From NCBI GenBank assembly GCA_944363635.1, contig CALVUP010000001.1, forward strand, positions 16,235-80,234: a DNA stretch of 64,000 nt, read 5' to 3'. The notes under the pieces were generated by a model that did no database searches, was not told the origin of the DNA, and saw only the letters and a program-made list of their open reading frames with translations. Below are positions 5,942 through 48,423 of this stretch, in pieces. The stretch is from an uncultured Bacilli bacterium (GTDB taxonomy: Bacteria > Bacillota_I > Bacilli_A > RF39 > UBA660). The first letter of the stretch is position 1. The number at the start of each line of letters is the position of its first letter. The position numbers and the translations under genes were made by a program.

Positions 5942-6197
5942 TTTACAAAATTCAAATTATCCTGTATAATACGTTTATAAATGCGTTGGATTGAGGAGTA
6001 TATTTATAAGAGTTTAAGAGAGTTATCGTTTGGTGGGAGATAATACTTAAATAAATAGAAGGTAGCAATCAAGTAGAATTTTTGAGAAATCGAAAGTAGA
6101 AAATTCCGTATCTCGCGTTAAGAGAAAGAGGTTATTATAAATAATAAACTAAGGTGGTACCACGAAAGATTCGTCCTTATGATGAATCTTTTTTTAT
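5942..6197 (+). promoter_or_regulatory. T-box leader with promoter and terminator, upstream of the HD-domain gene and valS
   Basis: TTTACA (5942-5947), 17 nt, TGTATAAT (5963-5970). T-box core 'aactaaggtggtaccacg' at 6147-6164. Terminator stem aagattc (6166-6172) / gaatctt (6184-6190) plus T7 run. Specifier codon not resolved. Confidence 0.65.
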
Positions 6198-6211
6198 TGC
6201 TTGGAGGGATT

Positions 6212-6946
6212 ATGGATAAATATATAGAAGCATTTGAAAACTATGTAGCATCATTTGATCTCGAGGTTTCACAGTTAAAAAGAAAAAAAGAACATACTTA
6301 TCGGGTCATAAAACTTTGTATGGAGATTGCCAAGTCTCTACAAATGAATGATCATGATGTTTTCCTTATGAAATTAATTGGCTTGTATCATGATATAGGT
6401 CGTTTTGATCAATTCAAACAGTTTTCTAAATTCAATGATTCTGAAACATATGATCATGCTTCTAAAGGAGTAATAATTTTAAATACTTTACAAATATTAG
6501 ATGATTTAGAAGAAAAAGATTTAATTTTAAAAGCTATTGAAAATCATAATCAAATCAAATTAGAAGAAAATCTTTCTCCAAGAGAAAAGCAGTTCTGCGA
6601 GATCATAAGAGATGCAGATAAACTTGATATATTAAACTTAGTAATCGAAGGTAAAATTAAGATGAATCCTTATGATGAAAAATATAGTGAGAAAGCTGTC
6701 CAAACGATTTTGAATGGAGAATGCATCGATTTAAAAGAATATCCAAGAAAGGTCGATCAATCTTTAGTAAAAATAGGATTGATGAATGATATTGTATTTC
6801 CGTTTTCGAAACAATATATTCTAAAAAATAATATGATTGATGAGTTAATAGAAATTTATATAAAGAATAACCCAAAAGAAAAAGATACATTAGAAAAAAT
6901 AAAGAAGAAAGTAAAAGAAAGGATGAATGATACAAATGTTAGATAA
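6212..6946 (+). CDS. HD-domain phosphohydrolase
   Basis: 'LIGLYHDIGRFDQF' HD motif. Start moved from 6179, which lies inside the T-box terminator, to ATG 6212 with a GGAGGG RBS. Confidence 0.6.
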   Translation: MDKYIEAFENYVASFDLEVSQLKRKKEHTYRVIKLCMEIAKSLQMNDHDVFLMKLIGLYHDIGRFDQFKQFSKFNDSETYDHASKGVIILNTLQILDDLEEKDLILKAIENHNQIKLEENLSPREKQFCEIIRDADKLDILNLVIEGKIKMNPYDEKYSEKAVQTILNGECIDLKEYPRKVDQSLVKIGLMNDIVFPFSKQYILKNNMIDELIEIYIKNNPKEKDTLEKIKKKVKERMNDTNVR

Positions 6947-9365
6947 AAAATATAATTTTAAAGAAAAAGAAGAAAAATGGGAGAAATATTGGGAAGAGAA
7001 TAATATTTATGAATTTAAGCCTGATCATAGAAAGGTTTATTCTATCGATACCCCGCCACCAACTGTAAATGGAAAAATTCATATAGGACATATATTTTCT
7101 TATTCACAAGCTGAAATGATTGCAAGATATAAAAGAATGATGGGATACAATGTTTTTTATCCTTTTGGTTTTGATGATAATGGGCTTCCAAGTGAGCGAC
7201 TTGTCGAAAGAGAACAAGGAAAAAAGGCTCATGAAATAGGAAGAGAAGAATTCTCAAAACTTTGTTATGATACTACGAATAAATATGAAGCGGAGTTTAA
7301 AAAACTATTTAAACGTGCTGGATTTAGTGCAGATGTAGATCATGCTTATAAAACAGTAAGTCCATCTAGTTCTAAGATCAGTCAATTATCTTTTTTAGAA
7401 CTTGTAGAAAAGGGACATTGCTATCATAAAGAAAGTCCTGCTCTTTGGTGTAGTGAATGTTTAACTTCTATTGCTCAAGCCGAGTTAGAAACTAAAACGA
7501 TAAAAACAACATTTAATTACATTCATTTTTATACCAAAGAAGATCATGAAGAATTTACCATTGCGACCACTAGACCCGAACTTCTTCCAGCTATTGTTTG
7601 TGTATTTGTAAATCCAAGTGATGAAAAACATAAACATTTAATTGGTAAGACGGCTTGCATTCCGGTCGTAGAAGAAGAAGTACCAATTCTTGCCGATGAA
7701 AAAGTTGCCATTGATAAAGGTACAGGTGTCGTTATGTGTTGTACGTTTGGAGATCAAACCGATATTGAATGGTGGAAAAAATACAATTTGCCACTTAAGA
7801 ATATCTTTACAAAAGATGGGCATATTGTAGATACAGTAAAAAATTATGGTGGATTAACCATTAAACAAGCTAGAAAACAGATCATTGAGGATATTAAAGA
7901 AGCCGGATATTTAGTAAAAGTAGAAGATTTGGAGCATGAAGTACAAACGCATGAGCGATGCGGAAGAGAAGTAGAATATGCTGTTATGAATCAATGGTTT
8001 ATTGATATCATGAATCATAAAGAAGATTTCTTACGTATTGGGGATGAAATCAATTGGTATCCAAAACACATGCAAGCAAGATACAACGAATGGGTAGAAA
8101 ATATCATGTGGGATTGGTGTATTTCAAGACAAAGATATTTTGGTGTACCATTTCCTGTATGGTATTGTAAAGATTGTGGTGAACCTATTTTCGCAAGAAA
8201 AGAAGATTTACCAGTCAATCCACTTGTAGATAAACCTCCTGTAGAAAAGTGTCCAAAATGCGGATCTTCTGAATTCATAGGAGAAACAGATATTATGGAT
8301 ACATGGCAAACATCTTCTGTTACACCTTTAATTAATATGAAATATGGAGAAAAAGACAACCTAGAAGACATTTTAAAACCAATGTCCTTAAGATGCAATG
8401 CCCATGATATCATTCGTACTTGGGATTTCTATAGTATTGTAAAAAGTTATTATACCTTTCTTCAAAAACCTTGGGAAAATGTAATGATTTCCGGATTTGT
8501 AATGGCCGATAAAGGAGAAAAAATCTCTAAAAGTAAAAACAATTCTAAAATGGAACCATTTGAATTATTAGAACAGTATGGAGCGGATATTGTTCGTTAC
8601 TGGGCTGGATCTGGTAAATTAGGTACCGATATCATCTTTAATGATGAAACATTCTTAAGAGGAAAGAAATTGATCAATAAGATTTGGAATGTATCTAAAT
8701 TTATCGAAATGCATTTACAAGATTACAAAGACAAAGAAATTAAAAATTATGAATACATGGATCGTTTTATTTTAGCAAAATACAAAAAAATGGAAGAAGC
8801 TTTCTTAAAATATTTAGATGAATATGAAATTGGGCTTGCTTTAAATATTTTAGAAAAATTCTTCTGGGAATTCTGTGATAATTACATTGAAATTGTAAAA
8901 CATAGATTGTATAGGCCAGAAGAGTTTGGAGAAGAAGCACGTTATTCCGGACAAAAAACCATTTATACTTTGCTTTATAAATTGTTACAAGACTTCTCTA
9001 TTTTCTTCCCATTTATCACAGAAGAAATTTATCAAGATTTATATAAGAAAGAAAAATCTATTCATTTAACAACGATTGAGCCATTAGAAGTCTCTTACGA
9101 AGAAGAAAGAAAAAACGGTGATTTATTATTAGAAATCATCAGTGTTTGCAGAGGAGAAAAAACCAAAAACAATGTATCTTTAAAAACACCTATCAAAAAC
9201 CTTGAACTTGGTTTATCAAAAGAGTTAAATCAAGCTTTAGAAGAAGCCATAAAAGATATAAAAGCTACATTATTTATCGAAAATATGAGTCGAAAAGAAA
9301 TAGATTCTTCTTATGAAATTTATAAGATTGAATTAGATTTGGAAGAAAAAAATGGAGGAGAATAA
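6927..9365 (+). CDS. valS: valine--tRNA ligase
   Basis: 'PPPTVNGKIHIGH' (HIGH), 'KISKSKNN' (KMSKS) and valS-type editing/CP1 regions. Start ambiguous by about 9 nt (ATG 6927 or 6936). Confidence 0.9.
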   Translation: MIQMLDKKYNFKEKEEKWEKYWEENNIYEFKPDHRKVYSIDTPPPTVNGKIHIGHIFSYSQAEMIARYKRMMGYNVFYPFGFDDNGLPSERLVEREQGKKAHEIGREEFSKLCYDTTNKYEAEFKKLFKRAGFSADVDHAYKTVSPSSSKISQLSFLELVEKGHCYHKESPALWCSECLTSIAQAELETKTIKTTFNYIHFYTKEDHEEFTIATTRPELLPAIVCVFVNPSDEKHKHLIGKTACIPVVEEEVPILADEKVAIDKGTGVVMCCTFGDQTDIEWWKKYNLPLKNIFTKDGHIVDTVKNYGGLTIKQARKQIIEDIKEAGYLVKVEDLEHEVQTHERCGREVEYAVMNQWFIDIMNHKEDFLRIGDEINWYPKHMQARYNEWVENIMWDWCISRQRYFGVPFPVWYCKDCGEPIFARKEDLPVNPLVDKPPVEKCPKCGSSEFIGETDIMDTWQTSSVTPLINMKYGEKDNLEDILKPMSLRCNAHDIIRTWDFYSIVKSYYTFLQKPWENVMISGFVMADKGEKISKSKNNSKMEPFELLEQYGADIVRYWAGSGKLGTDIIFNDETFLRGKKLINKIWNVSKFIEMHLQDYKDKEIKNYEYMDRFILAKYKKMEEAFLKYLDEYEIGLALNILEKFFWEFCDNYIEIVKHRLYRPEEFGEEARYSGQKTIYTLLYKLLQDFSIFFPFITEEIYQDLYKKEKSIHLTTIEPLEVSYEEERKNGDLLLEIISVCRGEKTKNNVSLKTPIKNLELGLSKELNQALEEAIKDIKATLFIENMSRKEIDSSYEIYKIELDLEEKNGGE

Positions 9366-9813
9366 AATGCCAAAGAAAGAACAAGAGTAAGATCAAAGAA
9401 ATCGCAAAAGATCATAAAATGGTGTCTGCGGTTAAAAACATTAGTAAATTTTCCTTGGATAAAGATCAAGCAGAATTATTAAAAAATACAGTTTAAATAA
9501 GAATGTTTTACAAACTATGAGGGTGCTAGATCAAAAAGATTGTATACAAAGTTTACAAGAAGATACTTTTGATAATCAAAAATTAGAACAAGAGTATAAT
9601 AGGGCGATTGAAATAGGAACAAAACCTAAGAGTCTTAAAAAGACCATGACAGAAATGTATAGACAAAAATAAGAAAATATGCTATTCTGTATATAGATGA
9701 AGAAAACTTCATAAAATAAAAAAGGGAATGCTTAATTGGCGATTGAGCACTTACCTGTATATGGTTGCACTTAATCTAGGATTGAGTGCTGTTTTCTTTT
9801 ATAAGCTTACTTC

Positions 9814-9891
9814 TTACAAAGTAAAAAGTAAAGATATAAGTAAGAAGATAATAATGAATAACGTAAAGATTAAAAAATCTTTTTTAAACAT
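9814..9891 (-). CDS. candidate type I toxin-like small hydrophobic peptide, 25 aa (locus A)
   Basis: GGAGGTGG RBS 4 nt before ATG. MFKKDFLIFTLFIIIFLLISLLFTL. Minus-strand TGTATAAT at 9952-9959. Convergent plus promoter TAGACA-17-TATTCT at 9660-9688. Confidence 0.35.
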   Translation of the reverse strand: MFKKDFLIFTLFIIIFLLISLLFTL

Positions 9892-10051
9892 ATTACCACC
9901 TCCAATCGTTATGAATGAAGGCAAGCACTCTTATTAAACATTCCATGTTCTATTATACAATAAGTAAACCTTGATAACAATCGAACAAAAGAAAAATATA
10001 TTACCAAATAGAACTATAGACAAAAATAAGAAAATATGCTATTCTGTATAT

Positions 10052-10167
10052 AGATGAAGAAAACTTCATAAAATAAAAAAGGGAACATTCAGTTTTGCAA
10101 AGTTGAATGTCTACCCTAATTAAACTGAGATAGACATTTAAGTCAAGGACTTAAGTGTCATTTTTTT
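10052..10167 (+). ncRNA. candidate antisense RNA of TA-like locus B
   Basis: Promoter TAGACA (10017-10022), 17 nt, TATTCT (10040-10045). 5' hairpin 'aacattcag...ttgaatgt'. Terminator stem gacatttaagt/acttaagtgtc at 10133-10159 plus T7, overlapping the 3' end of the minus-strand peptide gene. Confidence 0.35.
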
Positions 10168-10250
10168 ATTACAATTATCATAATGATAAAAAGGAACAAA
10201 ATGATAGAAATGAATTTTAGAACTTTTATGATAAAAGTTTTAGTTTTCAT
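10158..10250 (-). CDS. candidate type I toxin-like peptide, 30 aa (locus B)
   Basis: GGAGG RBS. MKTKTFIIKVLKFISIILFLFIIMIIVIKK. Minus-strand TGTATAAT at 10317-10324. The paralogue at 20919-21011 conserves the peptide despite an indel in the 5' UTR. Confidence 0.55.
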   Translation of the reverse strand: MKTKTFIIKVLKFISIILFLFIIMIIVIKK

Positions 10251-10471
10251 TTTATCAAACCTCCTCTCTGTATGAGATTTGGTAGACACTCAACAACTGG
10301 TATTACCTTAATCTTTATTATACAATAAGTAAACTTTGTACACAATGAAATCAGAATGATTTGCGTTGTAAGATTTTACCAAATTTATTTTCAATTACAA
10401 ACTTTGAAAACCTTGTAAATTATATAAAAATGTGCGATAATATAAGGGATTTATGTATAAGGAGGGAGAAT

Positions 10472-20562: not shown

Positions 20563-20636
20563 TGCCCCATAGCCAAGCGGTAAGGCGCTGGACTCTGACT
20601 CCAGGAGCGTTAGTTCGAATCTAACTGGGGCAGCCA
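20563..20636 (+). tRNA. tRNA-Gln (anticodon CUG)
   Basis: Hand-folded. U1:A72 pair with G73 discriminator typical of tRNA-Gln. D-arm identical to B. subtilis tRNA-Gln. Anticodon loop cuCUGac. TTCGAAT T-loop. CCA encoded. Confidence 0.8.
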
Positions 20637-20639
20637 CAT

Positions 20640-20715
20640 GCCGAAATAGCTCAGTTGGTAGAGCAGCTGTCTCGTAATCAGCAGGTCGTAGGTTCAAGTC
20701 CTATTTTCGGCACCA
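20640..20715 (+). tRNA. tRNA-Thr (anticodon CGU)
   Basis: Cloverleaf gccgaaa...tttcggc-a-cca. D-arm gctcagttggtagagc. Anticodon loop ctCGTaa. Close to Bacillus tRNA-Thr. Confidence 0.85.
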
Positions 20716-20801
20716 GAAGAGTTTAATCTAAACATTTAGGTGTTTCGGATAATTTATAAATAGAACTTGTCAAAAGTTCTTTTTTATGCTATTATGAATA
20801 T

Positions 20802-20930
20802 GTCAAGGGAATTTGCATAAAATAAAAAAGGGAACATTCAGTTTCGTCAAGTTGAATGTCTACCTAATAAATTGCCTTATGGCACTTATTCAGCGACACT
20901 TATTCTAACGAATGAGTGTCATTTTTTTAT
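20802..20930 (+). ncRNA. candidate antisense RNA of TA-like locus C
   Basis: TTGTCA (20767-20772), 17 nt, TATTAT (20790-20795). Same 5' hairpin family as locus B. Terminator gacacttattc/gaatgagtgtc plus T7 at 20895-20930, with compensatory changes relative to locus B. Confidence 0.35.
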
Positions 20931-21011
20931 TACGACTATCATAATGATAAGGAGAAATAAAATGATAGTAATGAGCTTAAGAACTTTTATTATAAAAGCC
21001 TTAGTTTTCAT
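20919..21011 (-). CDS. candidate type I toxin-like peptide, 30 aa (locus C)
   Basis: GGAGG RBS. MKTKAFIIKVLKLITIILFLLIIMIVVIKK. 5' UTR 'accagttgttgagt' conserved with locus B. Confidence 0.55.
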   Translation of the reverse strand: MKTKAFIIKVLKLITIILFLLIIMIVVIKK

Positions 21012-21395
21012 CTTTATCAAACCTCCTCTCTATAAAGATTAGAGGTAGATACTCAACAACTGATATTCCCTATAAAAAGTATACTATTGAAGGCCTTAAA
21101 AAACAAGCAAACTACTATAATTTTAATAAAAATATTTTATAGCAAAATTTGTTATATTAGTGTTAGAATATTGCTGAAAATTATTCACTATTGTAAAAAT
21201 GTATGATATATTGTTACTGTACTAAGATGATGGTACTGATTTAATCTTGGGTTCAGTATCTAATCCCCTCAAGGCACCAGATTGATAATAAACTCGAACT
21301 TTACTACAGAAAACAATCTTTTGAGATTGTTTTTTTATGTTATAATTAAAAAAGAGAAGTATCCCATAAAACAATACATAGAGGATGTGATTTCT

Positions 21396-47505: not shown

Positions 47506-48423
47506 ATGAATAATAATGAAAATAACAATTTTATGAATATTCAACCACAAGATAATAACAACGGAGGATCTGTGCCTCCAGTAGATCCAAATGCAGGTAT
47601 GCCACAAATGGAGCAACCAACAAACCCAGTTCCAGACATGAATCAAAATATGGGAATGCCACAAATGGAGCAATCAACAAACCCAGTTCCAGACATGAAT
47701 CAAAATATGGGAATGCCACAAATGGAGCAACCAACAAACCCAGTTCCAGACATGAATCAAAATATGGGAATGCCACAAATGGAACAACCAGCAAATCCAG
47801 TTCCAGACATGAATCAAAACATGGGAATGCCACAGATGGAACAACCAGCAAATCCAGTTCCAGATATGAATCAGAACATGGGAACGGTTCCACCAATGGG
47901 CCAACCAATGAATCAAATGCCAAATATGAATCAAAATATGGGAACGGTTCCACCTCTTGGTGGGGGATTTAATAAGAAACCAAGTTTTATGAGTAAATAT
48001 GGAAAATTTATCTTTATAGGTTTAATTATAATTGCTATTGCAGCTATTGCTTATTTAGTATTTGGTGGAAAAAAGTTAACTTGTACAATGTCAGATAGTT
48101 CTTTAGGAATTGAAATATCAGGTACAGCAACATTTAAATTTTCTGGAAACACTGCAAAATCTGTTTCTATGGTTATGAAAATGGAACTTCCAGAATTATA
48201 TCAAGATCAAATGGATGCCTTAGTTGAAGAATTAGAATCTCAATATGAAGAAGCAAGAGAAGAAGGTGTCGATGTAAAAGTAACTTCAACCGATTCAACC
48301 ATTACTGTAACAGCAAATGCTAAAAATGATCAATTTAGTTTGATTGATATGGGTAATAGTAGTGATAATTCTTATGATGCTGTAAAAAAGGCTATGGAAG
48401 CAGAAGGATTTACATGTGAATAA
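47506..48423 (+). CDS. membrane protein with N-terminal 19-aa tandem repeats (P/M/Q/N-rich), one TM helix and a C-terminal extracytoplasmic domain
   Basis: Five copies of 'MPQMEQPTNPVPDMNQNMG' plus a degenerate sixth, then TM 'FIFIGLIIIAIAAIAYLVFGG'. Confidence 0.55.
   Translation: MNNNENNNFMNIQPQDNNNGGSVPPVDPNAGMPQMEQPTNPVPDMNQNMGMPQMEQSTNPVPDMNQNMGMPQMEQPTNPVPDMNQNMGMPQMEQPANPVPDMNQNMGMPQMEQPANPVPDMNQNMGTVPPMGQPMNQMPNMNQNMGTVPPLGGGFNKKPSFMSKYGKFIFIGLIIIAIAAIAYLVFGGKKLTCTMSDSSLGIEISGTATFKFSGNTAKSVSMVMKMELPELYQDQMDALVEELESQYEEAREEGVDVKVTSTDSTITVTANAKNDQFSLIDMGNSSDNSYDAVKKAMEAEGFTCE
47601..47885 (+). repeat. 5 x 57-bp near-perfect tandem repeat inside CDS 47506-48423
   Basis: Unit 'gccacaaatggagcaaccaacaaacccagttccagacatgaatcaaaatatgggaat'. 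Units 1-3 near-identical, 4-5 with a few substitutions, then a degenerate copy to about 47960. Confidence 0.85.

Follow-up and report, generated by a model that had tools for sequence, protein, structure and literature searches.

Within 64,000 nucleotides (nt) of the genome of an uncultured Bacilli bacterium (assembly GCA_944363635.1, contig CALVUP010000001.1, positions 16,235 to 80,234 of the forward strand; this whole stretch is hereafter the window), a pair of tRNA genes is followed by a compact module of about 335 bp, module C, in which an open reading frame (ORF) for a hydrophobic peptide on the minus strand faces a predicted antisense RNA on the plus strand (Table 1). The window belongs to scaffold_210 of a gut metagenome (ENA ERZ28615057), and ERR4096549 carries the contig as well. 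A preliminary description of the sequence had taken module C for a paralog of a second module, B, and for a type I toxin-antitoxin-like locus. Over about 360 nt, B and C align with a mean column identity of 84%, and a search of the window with a profile of the family (nhmmer) recovers exactly three copies, A, B and C (E = 1e-17 to 3e-26), and no fourth; module A has the same plus-strand promoter and 19-mer as the other two. With these three copies in the window and at least about 100 modules in other genomes, chance can be excluded as the origin of the arrangement, and the type I-like reading gains in strength from so many homologs. Computation supports a peptide ORF under purifying selection, both promoters, both terminators, covarying strand-specific helices and a multi-copy distribution.

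Table 1. Coordinates of module C, its flanking tRNA genes and its two paralogs, counted from the first letter of the window. SD, Shine-Dalgarno.
Feature	Position	Strand	Details
tRNA-Gln	20563-20636		upstream of module C
tRNA-Thr	20640-20715		directly upstream of module C
Module C	20755-21110		peptide ORF on minus strand, antisense RNA on plus strand
Hairpin AGAACTT/AAGTTCT with T-run	20762-20785	+	read from sequence; -35 box of the plus-strand promoter lies in the loop
Antisense RNA promoter	20767-20795	+	TTGTCA-17-TATTAT, TG at -15/-14; 10/12 consensus matches
Predicted antisense (antitoxin-like) RNA	20802-20930	+	about 125 nt; fold z = -3.6, terminator scan
H0, 5' hairpin	20801-20817	+	GGAA loop
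19-mer	20816-20834	+	CATAAAATAAAAAAGGGAA; identical in modules A, B and C
H1 hairpin	20834-20859	+
H2 hairpin, predicted intrinsic terminator	20895-20920	+	followed by U7 (20922-20928); terminator scan
Peptide ORF	20919-21011	-	30 aa, MKTKAFIIKVLKLITIILFLLIIMIVVIKK; ATG start
SD site	21022-21030	-	GAGAGGAGG; 10 nt upstream of AUG
Toxin promoter	21078-21106	-	TTGTTT-17-TATACT (-10 box 21083-21078); read from sequence
Predicted toxin mRNA	20820-21070	-	about 250 nt; starts GGGAA (21070), ends in U-tract; fold z = -7.1
Long-range helix, 5' arm	21044-21070	-	GGGAAUAUCAGUUGUUGAGUAUCUACC, first 27 nt of mRNA; folding, -32.4 kcal/mol duplex
Long-range helix, 3' arm	20830-20866	-	GGUAGACAUUCAAC...CUGAAUGUUCCC; complement of H1, just upstream of U-tract
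Module B (paralog)	10015-10345		plus promoter 10017-10045; plus-RNA terminator 10133-10159; minus-strand ORF 10158-10250
Module A (different peptide type)	9658-9985		plus-RNA terminator 9767-9789; peptide MFKKDFLIFTLFIIIFLLISLLFTL at 9814-9891, minus strand

The family was collected by scanning species-representative genomes for exact matches to the conserved 19-mer, a scan that yielded at least 120 loci, with at least about 100 true modules among the matches listed. Unless stated otherwise, family-wide counts refer to 80 complete modules taken from those matches; pairing in the hairpins H1 and H2 was assessed in 78 distinct sequences against shuffles and slid partners, folding and energies of the toxin mRNA in 65 family members, and selection on the peptide in 27 distinct coding sequences of 30 codons, out of 33 homologs of the same peptide type as C. 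The ends of both transcripts are predictions throughout.

The peptide of module C combines a basic N-terminus, an unbroken hydrophobic stretch of 16 residues and a KK tail, with a grand average of hydropathy (GRAVY) of 1.95 and a best 17-residue window of 3.25. An SD site and an ATG are present in 80/80 modules, at a fixed distance from the TATAAT promoter, and the ORFs are 24-31 aa long apart from two longer outliers. They fall into three related types: type 1 (MKTKTFIIKVLKLIAIILFLLIIMIVVIKK-like; 33 modules, including B and C), type 2 (MKKKDLLISFLILIIILLIVSLMILCIKK-like; 19 modules) and type 3 (M.KKDFLI..LI.IIFLLIALLFTLV-like; 26 modules, including A). In the type-1 frame pN/pS is 0.38, internal stop codons are absent (0/27) and entropies of 0.40, 0.19 and 0.49 at codon positions 1, 2 and 3 mark the second position as the most conserved. 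Peptides B and C had been said to differ by conservative substitutions only, and this holds for all five of the 30 residues that change (A5T, L13F, T15S, L21F and V26I); at the nucleotide level their ORFs differ at 13 sites, five in first, none in second and eight in third codon positions, with a synonymous change in seven codons. The accompanying claim of a single 1-nt indel in the 5' untranslated region (UTR) of the minus strand, which spares the peptide ORF and breaks a small plus-strand ORF, is right in its effect and wrong in its count: there are two such indels, one after CUACC and one between SD and AUG, and it is the latter that shifts the plus-strand shadow ORF, which reads ...VFIFIKPPLYKD in C versus ...VFILSNLLSV in B.

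Neither this shadow frame nor the short ORF within the plus RNA (20813-20908) proved to be a conserved plus-strand ORF across the family. The shadow ORF varies in length between 24 and 101 aa, ends in either of two C-terminal frames and in 22/29 cases has its first ATG downstream of the plus-RNA terminator; the ORF within the plus RNA ranges from 9 to 97 codons and lacks a start codon in 14/80 modules. Among the type-1 sequences the antisense frame is open in 27/27, with pN/pS of 0.50 and the first codon position most conserved, and it stays open because, with the third codon positions of the two frames coinciding, a stop would have to face a codon for Tyr, His or Gln, and the peptide is devoid of all three. 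Given the selection and the retained SD and ATG on one strand and such variable frames on the other, the minus strand is the coding strand, as had been proposed from the comparison of B with C. A small hydrophobic peptide (under 60 aa) of membrane type, the usual product of a type I toxin gene, thus appears to be encoded by a real ORF. At two other loci, L019 (near 6427) and L020 (near 3733), the type-1 ORF is frameshifted (MKTKTFFKKSSQARYYHF...), and both have the look of pseudogenes in decay.

On the plus strand, the promoter cTTGtCA-17-TGnTATTAT is conserved across all three peptide types, and in module C it lies closer to consensus than in B (9/12), in line with the preliminary description. 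A conserved TAAAAT inside the 19-mer was considered as an alternative -10 box and rejected: it has no accompanying -35 box, and the extended -10 promoter upstream of it is conserved. The predicted transcript opens with hairpin H0, found in 94% of modules with GAAA (45) or GGAA (11) loops and with stems that vary but stay paired. On this RNA the 19-mer supplies the 3' arm of H0, an A-rich linker and GGGAA, and on the toxin mRNA it supplies UUCCC and the terminator U-tract. H1 and H2 are paired in 97.4% of cells, compared with 88.4% for shuffles and 32-41% for slid partners, with both-side changes in 16/22 pairs; in H2 on its own, 11/12 pairs show changes on both sides among the 78 homologs. About 206 of the 1696 paired cells (about 12%) are G.U, each of which is an A.C mismatch on the other strand, and H1 folds locally at a mean of -11.6 kcal/mol on the plus strand versus -8.7 on the minus strand, so that selection on the structure acts at the level of the plus-strand transcript.

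The hairpin now recognised as H2 had been described as a terminator that keeps its pairing through compensatory change and serves both RNAs. The first part is borne out, since B (GACATTTAAGT/ACTTAAGTGTC, 10133-10159) and C (GACACTTATTC/GAATGAGTGTC, 20895-20920) are both fully paired and both sides are altered at three positions. The sharing is not: a U-run follows H2 on the plus strand only (5-8 U, at least seven in 70/78 sequences), and the toxin mRNA reads through. On the toxin strand there are 0-4 U after H2 and seven U out of eight positions after the complement of H1 in 78/78 sequences; as only the latter offers a U-tract, the toxin mRNA is predicted to continue to about 20820 and to end in a hairpin of its own followed by the U-tract within the 19-mer. 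The plus strand therefore has the features of a non-coding antisense RNA equipped with a promoter and a terminator of its own, and the two predicted transcripts overlap in cis over about 110 nt (20820-20930), including the last four codons of the peptide.

The -10 box of the toxin promoter is TATAAT in 65/80 modules and keeps a fixed spacing of about 63-66 nt to the ATG; the TATACT of module C is weaker than this family norm. Transcription would start at GG(G)AA, near 21070 in C, and give an mRNA with a family median length of 237 nt. Folding of this mRNA brings out what is, on these predictions, the most distinctive feature of the module, one missed by the preliminary description: a helix that joins the two ends of the molecule. 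In C the opening 27 nt pair with each of the two arms of the 3' hairpin region, and the 3' arm of this helix is the very segment covered by the antisense RNA. Whole-mRNA folds are far more stable than expected in B and A as well as in C (z = -5.1 and -7.1 for the former two), and the helix (defined by pairing of 15 or more of nt 1-25 with the last 62 nt) occurs in the minimum-energy fold of 63/65 family mRNAs. Judged by energies rather than by a phylogeny-aware statistic, it covaries, with cognate arms pairing at -36 kcal/mol, arms exchanged across the two H1 classes at -21 to -22 and shuffled 5' arms at -10.8. On average it contains 2.5 G.U pairs, and in 64/65 modules its toxin-strand form is the more stable of the two (-35.7 vs -26.8 kcal/mol for the opposite strand), a strand-specific stability that marks it as an RNA feature and not as an inverted repeat of the DNA. 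The SD site, likewise, is for the most part paired in the predictions (unpaired probability about 0.2), and together the two would amount to the built-in translational restraint that is typical of type I toxin mRNAs.

Hosts of the family are nearly all, among the matches listed, metagenome-assembled genomes (MAGs) labelled uncultured Bacilli, Tenericutes, Mycoplasma, Erysipelotrichaceae or Bacillales, found in the gut of rabbit, goat, deer, chicken, mouse and human; the hosts include Firmicutes bacterium CAG:822, Ca. Ventrenecus, Ca. Onthousia and Ca. Coprosoma, as well as one complete chromosome of 1.52 Mb (OZ007022.1). Three true modules (L015, L079 and L121) sit on contigs of genomes labelled Muribaculaceae (Bacteroidota), and as their sequence is of Bacilli type these are more likely mis-binned contigs than cases of real spread. 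Between species, DNA homology is limited to the module itself (80-89% identity) and the flanks are unrelated. Tandem arrays occur at five of the fetched loci as well as in the window, and frameshifted and truncated copies are found; a multi-copy, tandem and sometimes decayed pattern of this sort is typical of selfish or accessory elements, to which the family may belong.

The surroundings of the module show one regularity: 22/80 modules lie no more than 200 nt downstream of a tRNA gene, all in plus-RNA orientation, and none has a tRNA gene on the toxin-promoter side. In the window (20563-20785) module C is such a case, as are L028, L035, L063, L084, L086, L087, L090, L093, L096, L097 and L103. 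The hairpin around the -35 box covaries in most homologs (CGACTT/AAGTCG, GCACTT/AAGTGC, GGACTT/AAGTCC), and in the window this hairpin, with its T-run, probably terminates the tRNA-Gln/tRNA-Thr pair that lies upstream.

The family has escaped existing resources. At gathering score Rfam returns only a T-box and tRNAs for the window, and only tRNAs and one tmRNA for 18 module-bearing loci; with E relaxed to 10, the module draws chance matches, the best of which (E = 0.024) is far below gathering, and no toxin-antitoxin RNA family is among them. The two plus-strand ORFs give noise in Pfam. The module has no blastn match in plasmid and phage collections, and the 11 matches of the 19-mer in viral contigs are all unrelated terminators. 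None of ten peptides from the window and the family has an exact entry in a collection of 15 billion proteins, a protein homology search with an ORF extended to 43 aa found a single relative of 30 aa, and the family is not described in the literature searched.

Several variants of the module are worth recording. Modules A and B stand in tandem immediately upstream of dnaG and are identical over 71 nt (9658-9728 = 10015-10085), covering the plus promoter and the start of the plus RNA, despite their differing peptide types, which suggests that the 5' part of the antisense gene was recently converted or duplicated. Module C has an extra segment between H1 and H2 (20870-20893), shared with L014, L027, L045 and L094, which partly duplicates the 5' arm of H2 (GCACTTATTCAG vs GACACTTATTCTA) and could, as an alternative, pair with the terminator's 3' arm. 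At L011 (near 1919), L049 (near 2301) and L110 (near 4421) the module is cut within H2 by the same foreign sequence (CCCCATTTCTTGG...AAATGAGGTTTTTTAATG, then an ORF), which may reflect site-specific insertion.

Taken together, these observations make it probable that module C is one copy of an undescribed chromosomal family of type I toxin-antitoxin-like modules, of the convergent, 3'-overlapping kind found in Gram-positive bacteria. From the sequence we infer transcription of both RNAs, toxicity of the peptide, repression by the antisense RNA and the nucleases that would be involved, in a scheme that may run as follows. The minus strand would give rise to an mRNA of about 250 nt for a 30-residue peptide with a single membrane-spanning segment; owing to the 5'-3' helix and the predicted pairing of the SD site, the full-length molecule would be compact, protected at its ends and poorly translated. 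From a strong extended -10 promoter, the plus strand would produce an RNA of about 125 nt with three hairpins, perfectly complementary to the last ~110 nt of the mRNA. The antisense RNA would make first contact with the 3' UTR of the mRNA through complementary hairpin loops, a long duplex would form next and displace the mRNA's own 5' end, and the duplex and the freed ends would be degraded by RNase III and by 5' or 3' exonucleases in the manner of txpA/RatA and bsrG/SR4, with the outcome that the peptide is not made. An additional translational effect of the SR4 kind is possible, but is unsupported by the folding tests described below.

A number of points weigh against this interpretation. 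Firstly, peptides A, B and C return nothing but noise in Pfam (E up to 10) and NCBIfam, and so belong to no toxin family known there. Secondly, all hosts are uncultured MAGs, and the terms toxin and antitoxin are read from sequence. Thirdly, masking the 3' UTR, as a mimic of bound antisense RNA, leaves the accessibility of the SD site much as it was (0.20 vs 0.22), with the site becoming more open in 14 modules and less so in eight; as there is no consistent change, folding lends no support to a translational switch and reveals no obvious route to a translatable mRNA. Fourthly, conservation of the 19-mer is partly an effect of ascertainment, because loci were gathered by exact matches to it. 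Finally, conservation in the module is highest in H0 and its flank, which lie outside the predicted overlap with the mRNA; the simple model leaves this unexplained.

It is conceivable, but unlikely, that the module holds a gene for a non-toxic small membrane protein, the level of which is merely tuned by a cis-antisense RNA with no role in addiction, stress or defence. Sequestration of the SD site in every predicted state would fit such a gene, as would conservation across many species, the chromosomal location of the family and its absence from phage, plasmid and viral collections. Variable copy number, tandem and decayed copies and unrelated genomic contexts speak for a different kind of element, and a single hydrophobic helix of 24-31 aa with charged ends, encoded by a 5'-3'-locked mRNA with a hidden SD site, has the signature of a type I toxin; indeed, 5'-3' closure and SD sequestration are among the search descriptors of T1TAdb (PMC8594479).

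The unexplained conservation of H0 invites another explanation, in which the plus RNA acts mainly in trans, or binds a protein, through H0 and the A-rich linker, and its overlap with the mRNA is secondary. That H0, its GNRA-type loop and the linker are outside the overlap, and are common to modules with different peptides and different H1 and H2, is what this explanation would lead one to expect. On the other hand, H1 and H2 covary by construction with the 3' UTR of the cognate toxin, the mRNA's 5' arm follows the H1 class, and the plus RNA is always found beside a peptide ORF save in visibly truncated copies. Extra pairing of the antisense RNA with the 5' region of the mRNA does not rise clearly above background either (RNAduplex, -31 vs -25 +/- 4.5 kcal/mol for shuffles, a method that is crude for long RNAs). 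A primarily trans-acting RNA consequently strikes us as quite improbable.

A multi-copy unit of about 335 bp in unrelated flanking DNA, with an inverted repeat bracketing its ORF and 22/80 copies directly downstream of tRNA genes, might also be taken for a non-coding repeat, either a miniature mobile element bounded by terminal inverted repeats or a reiterated terminator cassette belonging to tRNA operons, with the ORF and the RNA structures as by-products. This is very improbable. The inverted repeat lies inside the conserved unit and both promoters lie outside the repeat. G.U pairs are tied to one strand, with H1 and H2 favouring the plus strand and the 5'-3' helix the minus strand (64/65), which points to selection at the level of RNA, and the ORF retains its SD, ATG and length under change that is biased towards synonymous sites. 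A transposon-like element with terminal inverted repeats was accordingly rejected on the strand-specific G.U pairs and the position of the promoters. That the plus strand holds the real gene, be it a 32-56-aa ORF (20872-21042) or the short ORF in the plus RNA, with the minus-strand ORF as its shadow, has next to no chance of being right, for although the antisense frame is open in every type-1 sequence at a pN/pS of 0.50, that openness follows from the composition of the peptide, the first and not the second codon position is the most conserved, the variable lengths, alternative C-terminal frames, late first ATGs and missing start codons set out above are foreign to a conserved gene, and in module C, the one copy concerned here, no SD motif stands just upstream of the ATG (TTATTACGACTATCATA).

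If module C is a type I-like locus, one further feature deserves comment. The segment of the antisense RNA that runs from GGGAA through H1 to CUACC is nearly identical to the first 27 nt of the toxin mRNA, a resemblance that arises because the target of the antisense RNA is also the 3' partner of the long-range helix. On this view the antisense RNA and the mRNA's 5' end would compete for one segment of the 3' UTR. The mRNA might then alternate between two states, a closed form protected at both ends and an antisense-bound form that is open and degradable. As more than a quarter of modules stand directly behind a tRNA gene of like orientation, with the -35 box in the loop of the tRNA terminator, read-through from the tRNA genes could supply extra antisense RNA. 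Toxin repression would in that case be tied to the growth-rate-dependent transcription of tRNAs, and starvation would release the peptide. This combination of 5'-end mimicry as a two-state switch with tRNA-coupled repression is offered as speculation and is rather unlikely to be correct in full.

Elsewhere in the window, three observations stand apart from the module. Beyond the toxin promoter of module C (21184-21340) there is a promoter-like TTCACT-17-TATATT with TG, followed about 115 nt further on by a hairpin that resembles a terminator (AAAACAATCT...AGATTGTTTTTTT); L012 and L014 are similar to this sequence as far as about 21279, the region matches no Rfam family, and it may represent another small RNA or a leader. 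The T-box leader (Rfam RF00230, 110.7 bits) is at 5977-6181, upstream of ORFs 6179-6946 and 6927-9365. The ORF at 47506-48423 contains five to six tandem repeats of 57 nt (47528-47949; unit CCACAAATGGAGCAACCAACAAACCCAGTTCCAGACATGAATCAAAATATGGGAATG).

The practical interest of the family lies in its having gone unnoticed by gene callers in about a hundred species-level genomes, all of uncultured gut Bacilli that have small genomes (at least about 100 modules among the matches listed). In such genomes it could be annotated by a simple rule, the 19-mer accompanied by an SD site and an ORF on the opposite strand. Its members constitute a natural covariation set for a toxin mRNA in which locking helix and antisense target coincide, and the three peptide subtypes could be used in tests of toxicity and specificity. 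What emerges from the preliminary description, with its minus-strand coding and compensating hairpin in a paralogous type I-like module both supported, is a real and well-supported new family within the known Gram-positive 3'-overlapping kind, with a presumptive toxin as its product. Understanding of type I systems as such is unchanged unless the ideas of mimicry or tRNA coupling should hold.

Amongst known systems, module C is closest in architecture to bsrG/SR4 and txpA/RatA, and in the locking of its mRNA to hok/Sok and aapA1/IsoA1. The convergent transcription and small hydrophobic toxin are those of bsrG/SR4 and txpA/RatA of B. subtilis, of bsrE/SR5 and yonT/SR6 and of sprG/SprF of S. aureus, and overlap of 3' ends was common to every Gram-positive type I system described up to then (PMC4147584). 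The overlap of roughly 75-120 nt in bsrG/txpA-type systems compares with about 110 nt here, RatA acts through RNase III-dependent decay and SR4 through decay and a structural change near the ribosome-binding site, and the SD site of bsrG is partly sequestered, as that of module C is predicted to be (PMC4147584). In both cases complementarity falls far short of the ribosome-binding site, the overlap in module C ending at 20930 and the SD site beginning at 21022. The differences are equally clear. There is no similarity to the bsrG/SR4 and txpA/RatA group in peptide or RNA sequence (Pfam, NCBIfam, Rfam), the peptide has 30 aa against 38-59, and the loci lie beside tRNA genes in small uncultured genomes instead of in prophage or skin elements. 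Module C also has the predicted 27-bp helix between the mRNA 5' end and the antisense-targeted 3' UTR; to our knowledge such a helix onto the antisense target has not been described for systems of the bsrG/txpA type.

The par locus of E. faecalis pAD1 (fst RNA I/RNA II) and the wider Fst/Ldr superfamily share with module C a Gram-positive host, convergent transcription, a peptide of ~30 aa and a stem-loop at the 5' end in which the SD site is hidden. In par a single bidirectional terminator serves both RNAs, whereas here there are two separate one-way terminators, as judged by their U-runs (78/78). The 5' direct repeats of par provide complementarity near the ribosome-binding site; here nothing rises clearly above shuffles in the crude RNAduplex comparison. 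Peptides A, B and C have no match to the Fst_toxin profile (Pfam, E up to 10; NCBIfam), and the Ala-Pro motif that is typical of Fst is absent from the peptide of module C. Judged by these sequence features, the family is not a member of the Fst family.

With hok/Sok of plasmid R1 and aapA1/IsoA1 of Helicobacter pylori, finally, module C shares a full-length mRNA that is closed from 5' to 3' end with its SD site sequestered, features that are predicted here and that have been dissected genetically in aapA1 (PMC6733600). Those systems belong to Proteobacteria or Campylobacterota and ours to Bacilli-like lineages, and the peptides are not homologous. In hok/Sok and aapA1/IsoA1 the antisense RNA binds the 5' region of an mRNA processed at its 3' end, whereas here its gene lies opposite the 3' UTR and its complementarity is to the helix's 3' partner. 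What would set the module C family apart from all of these, if the predicted folds are correct, is that a single sequence serves both as antisense target and as 3' partner of the long-range helix.

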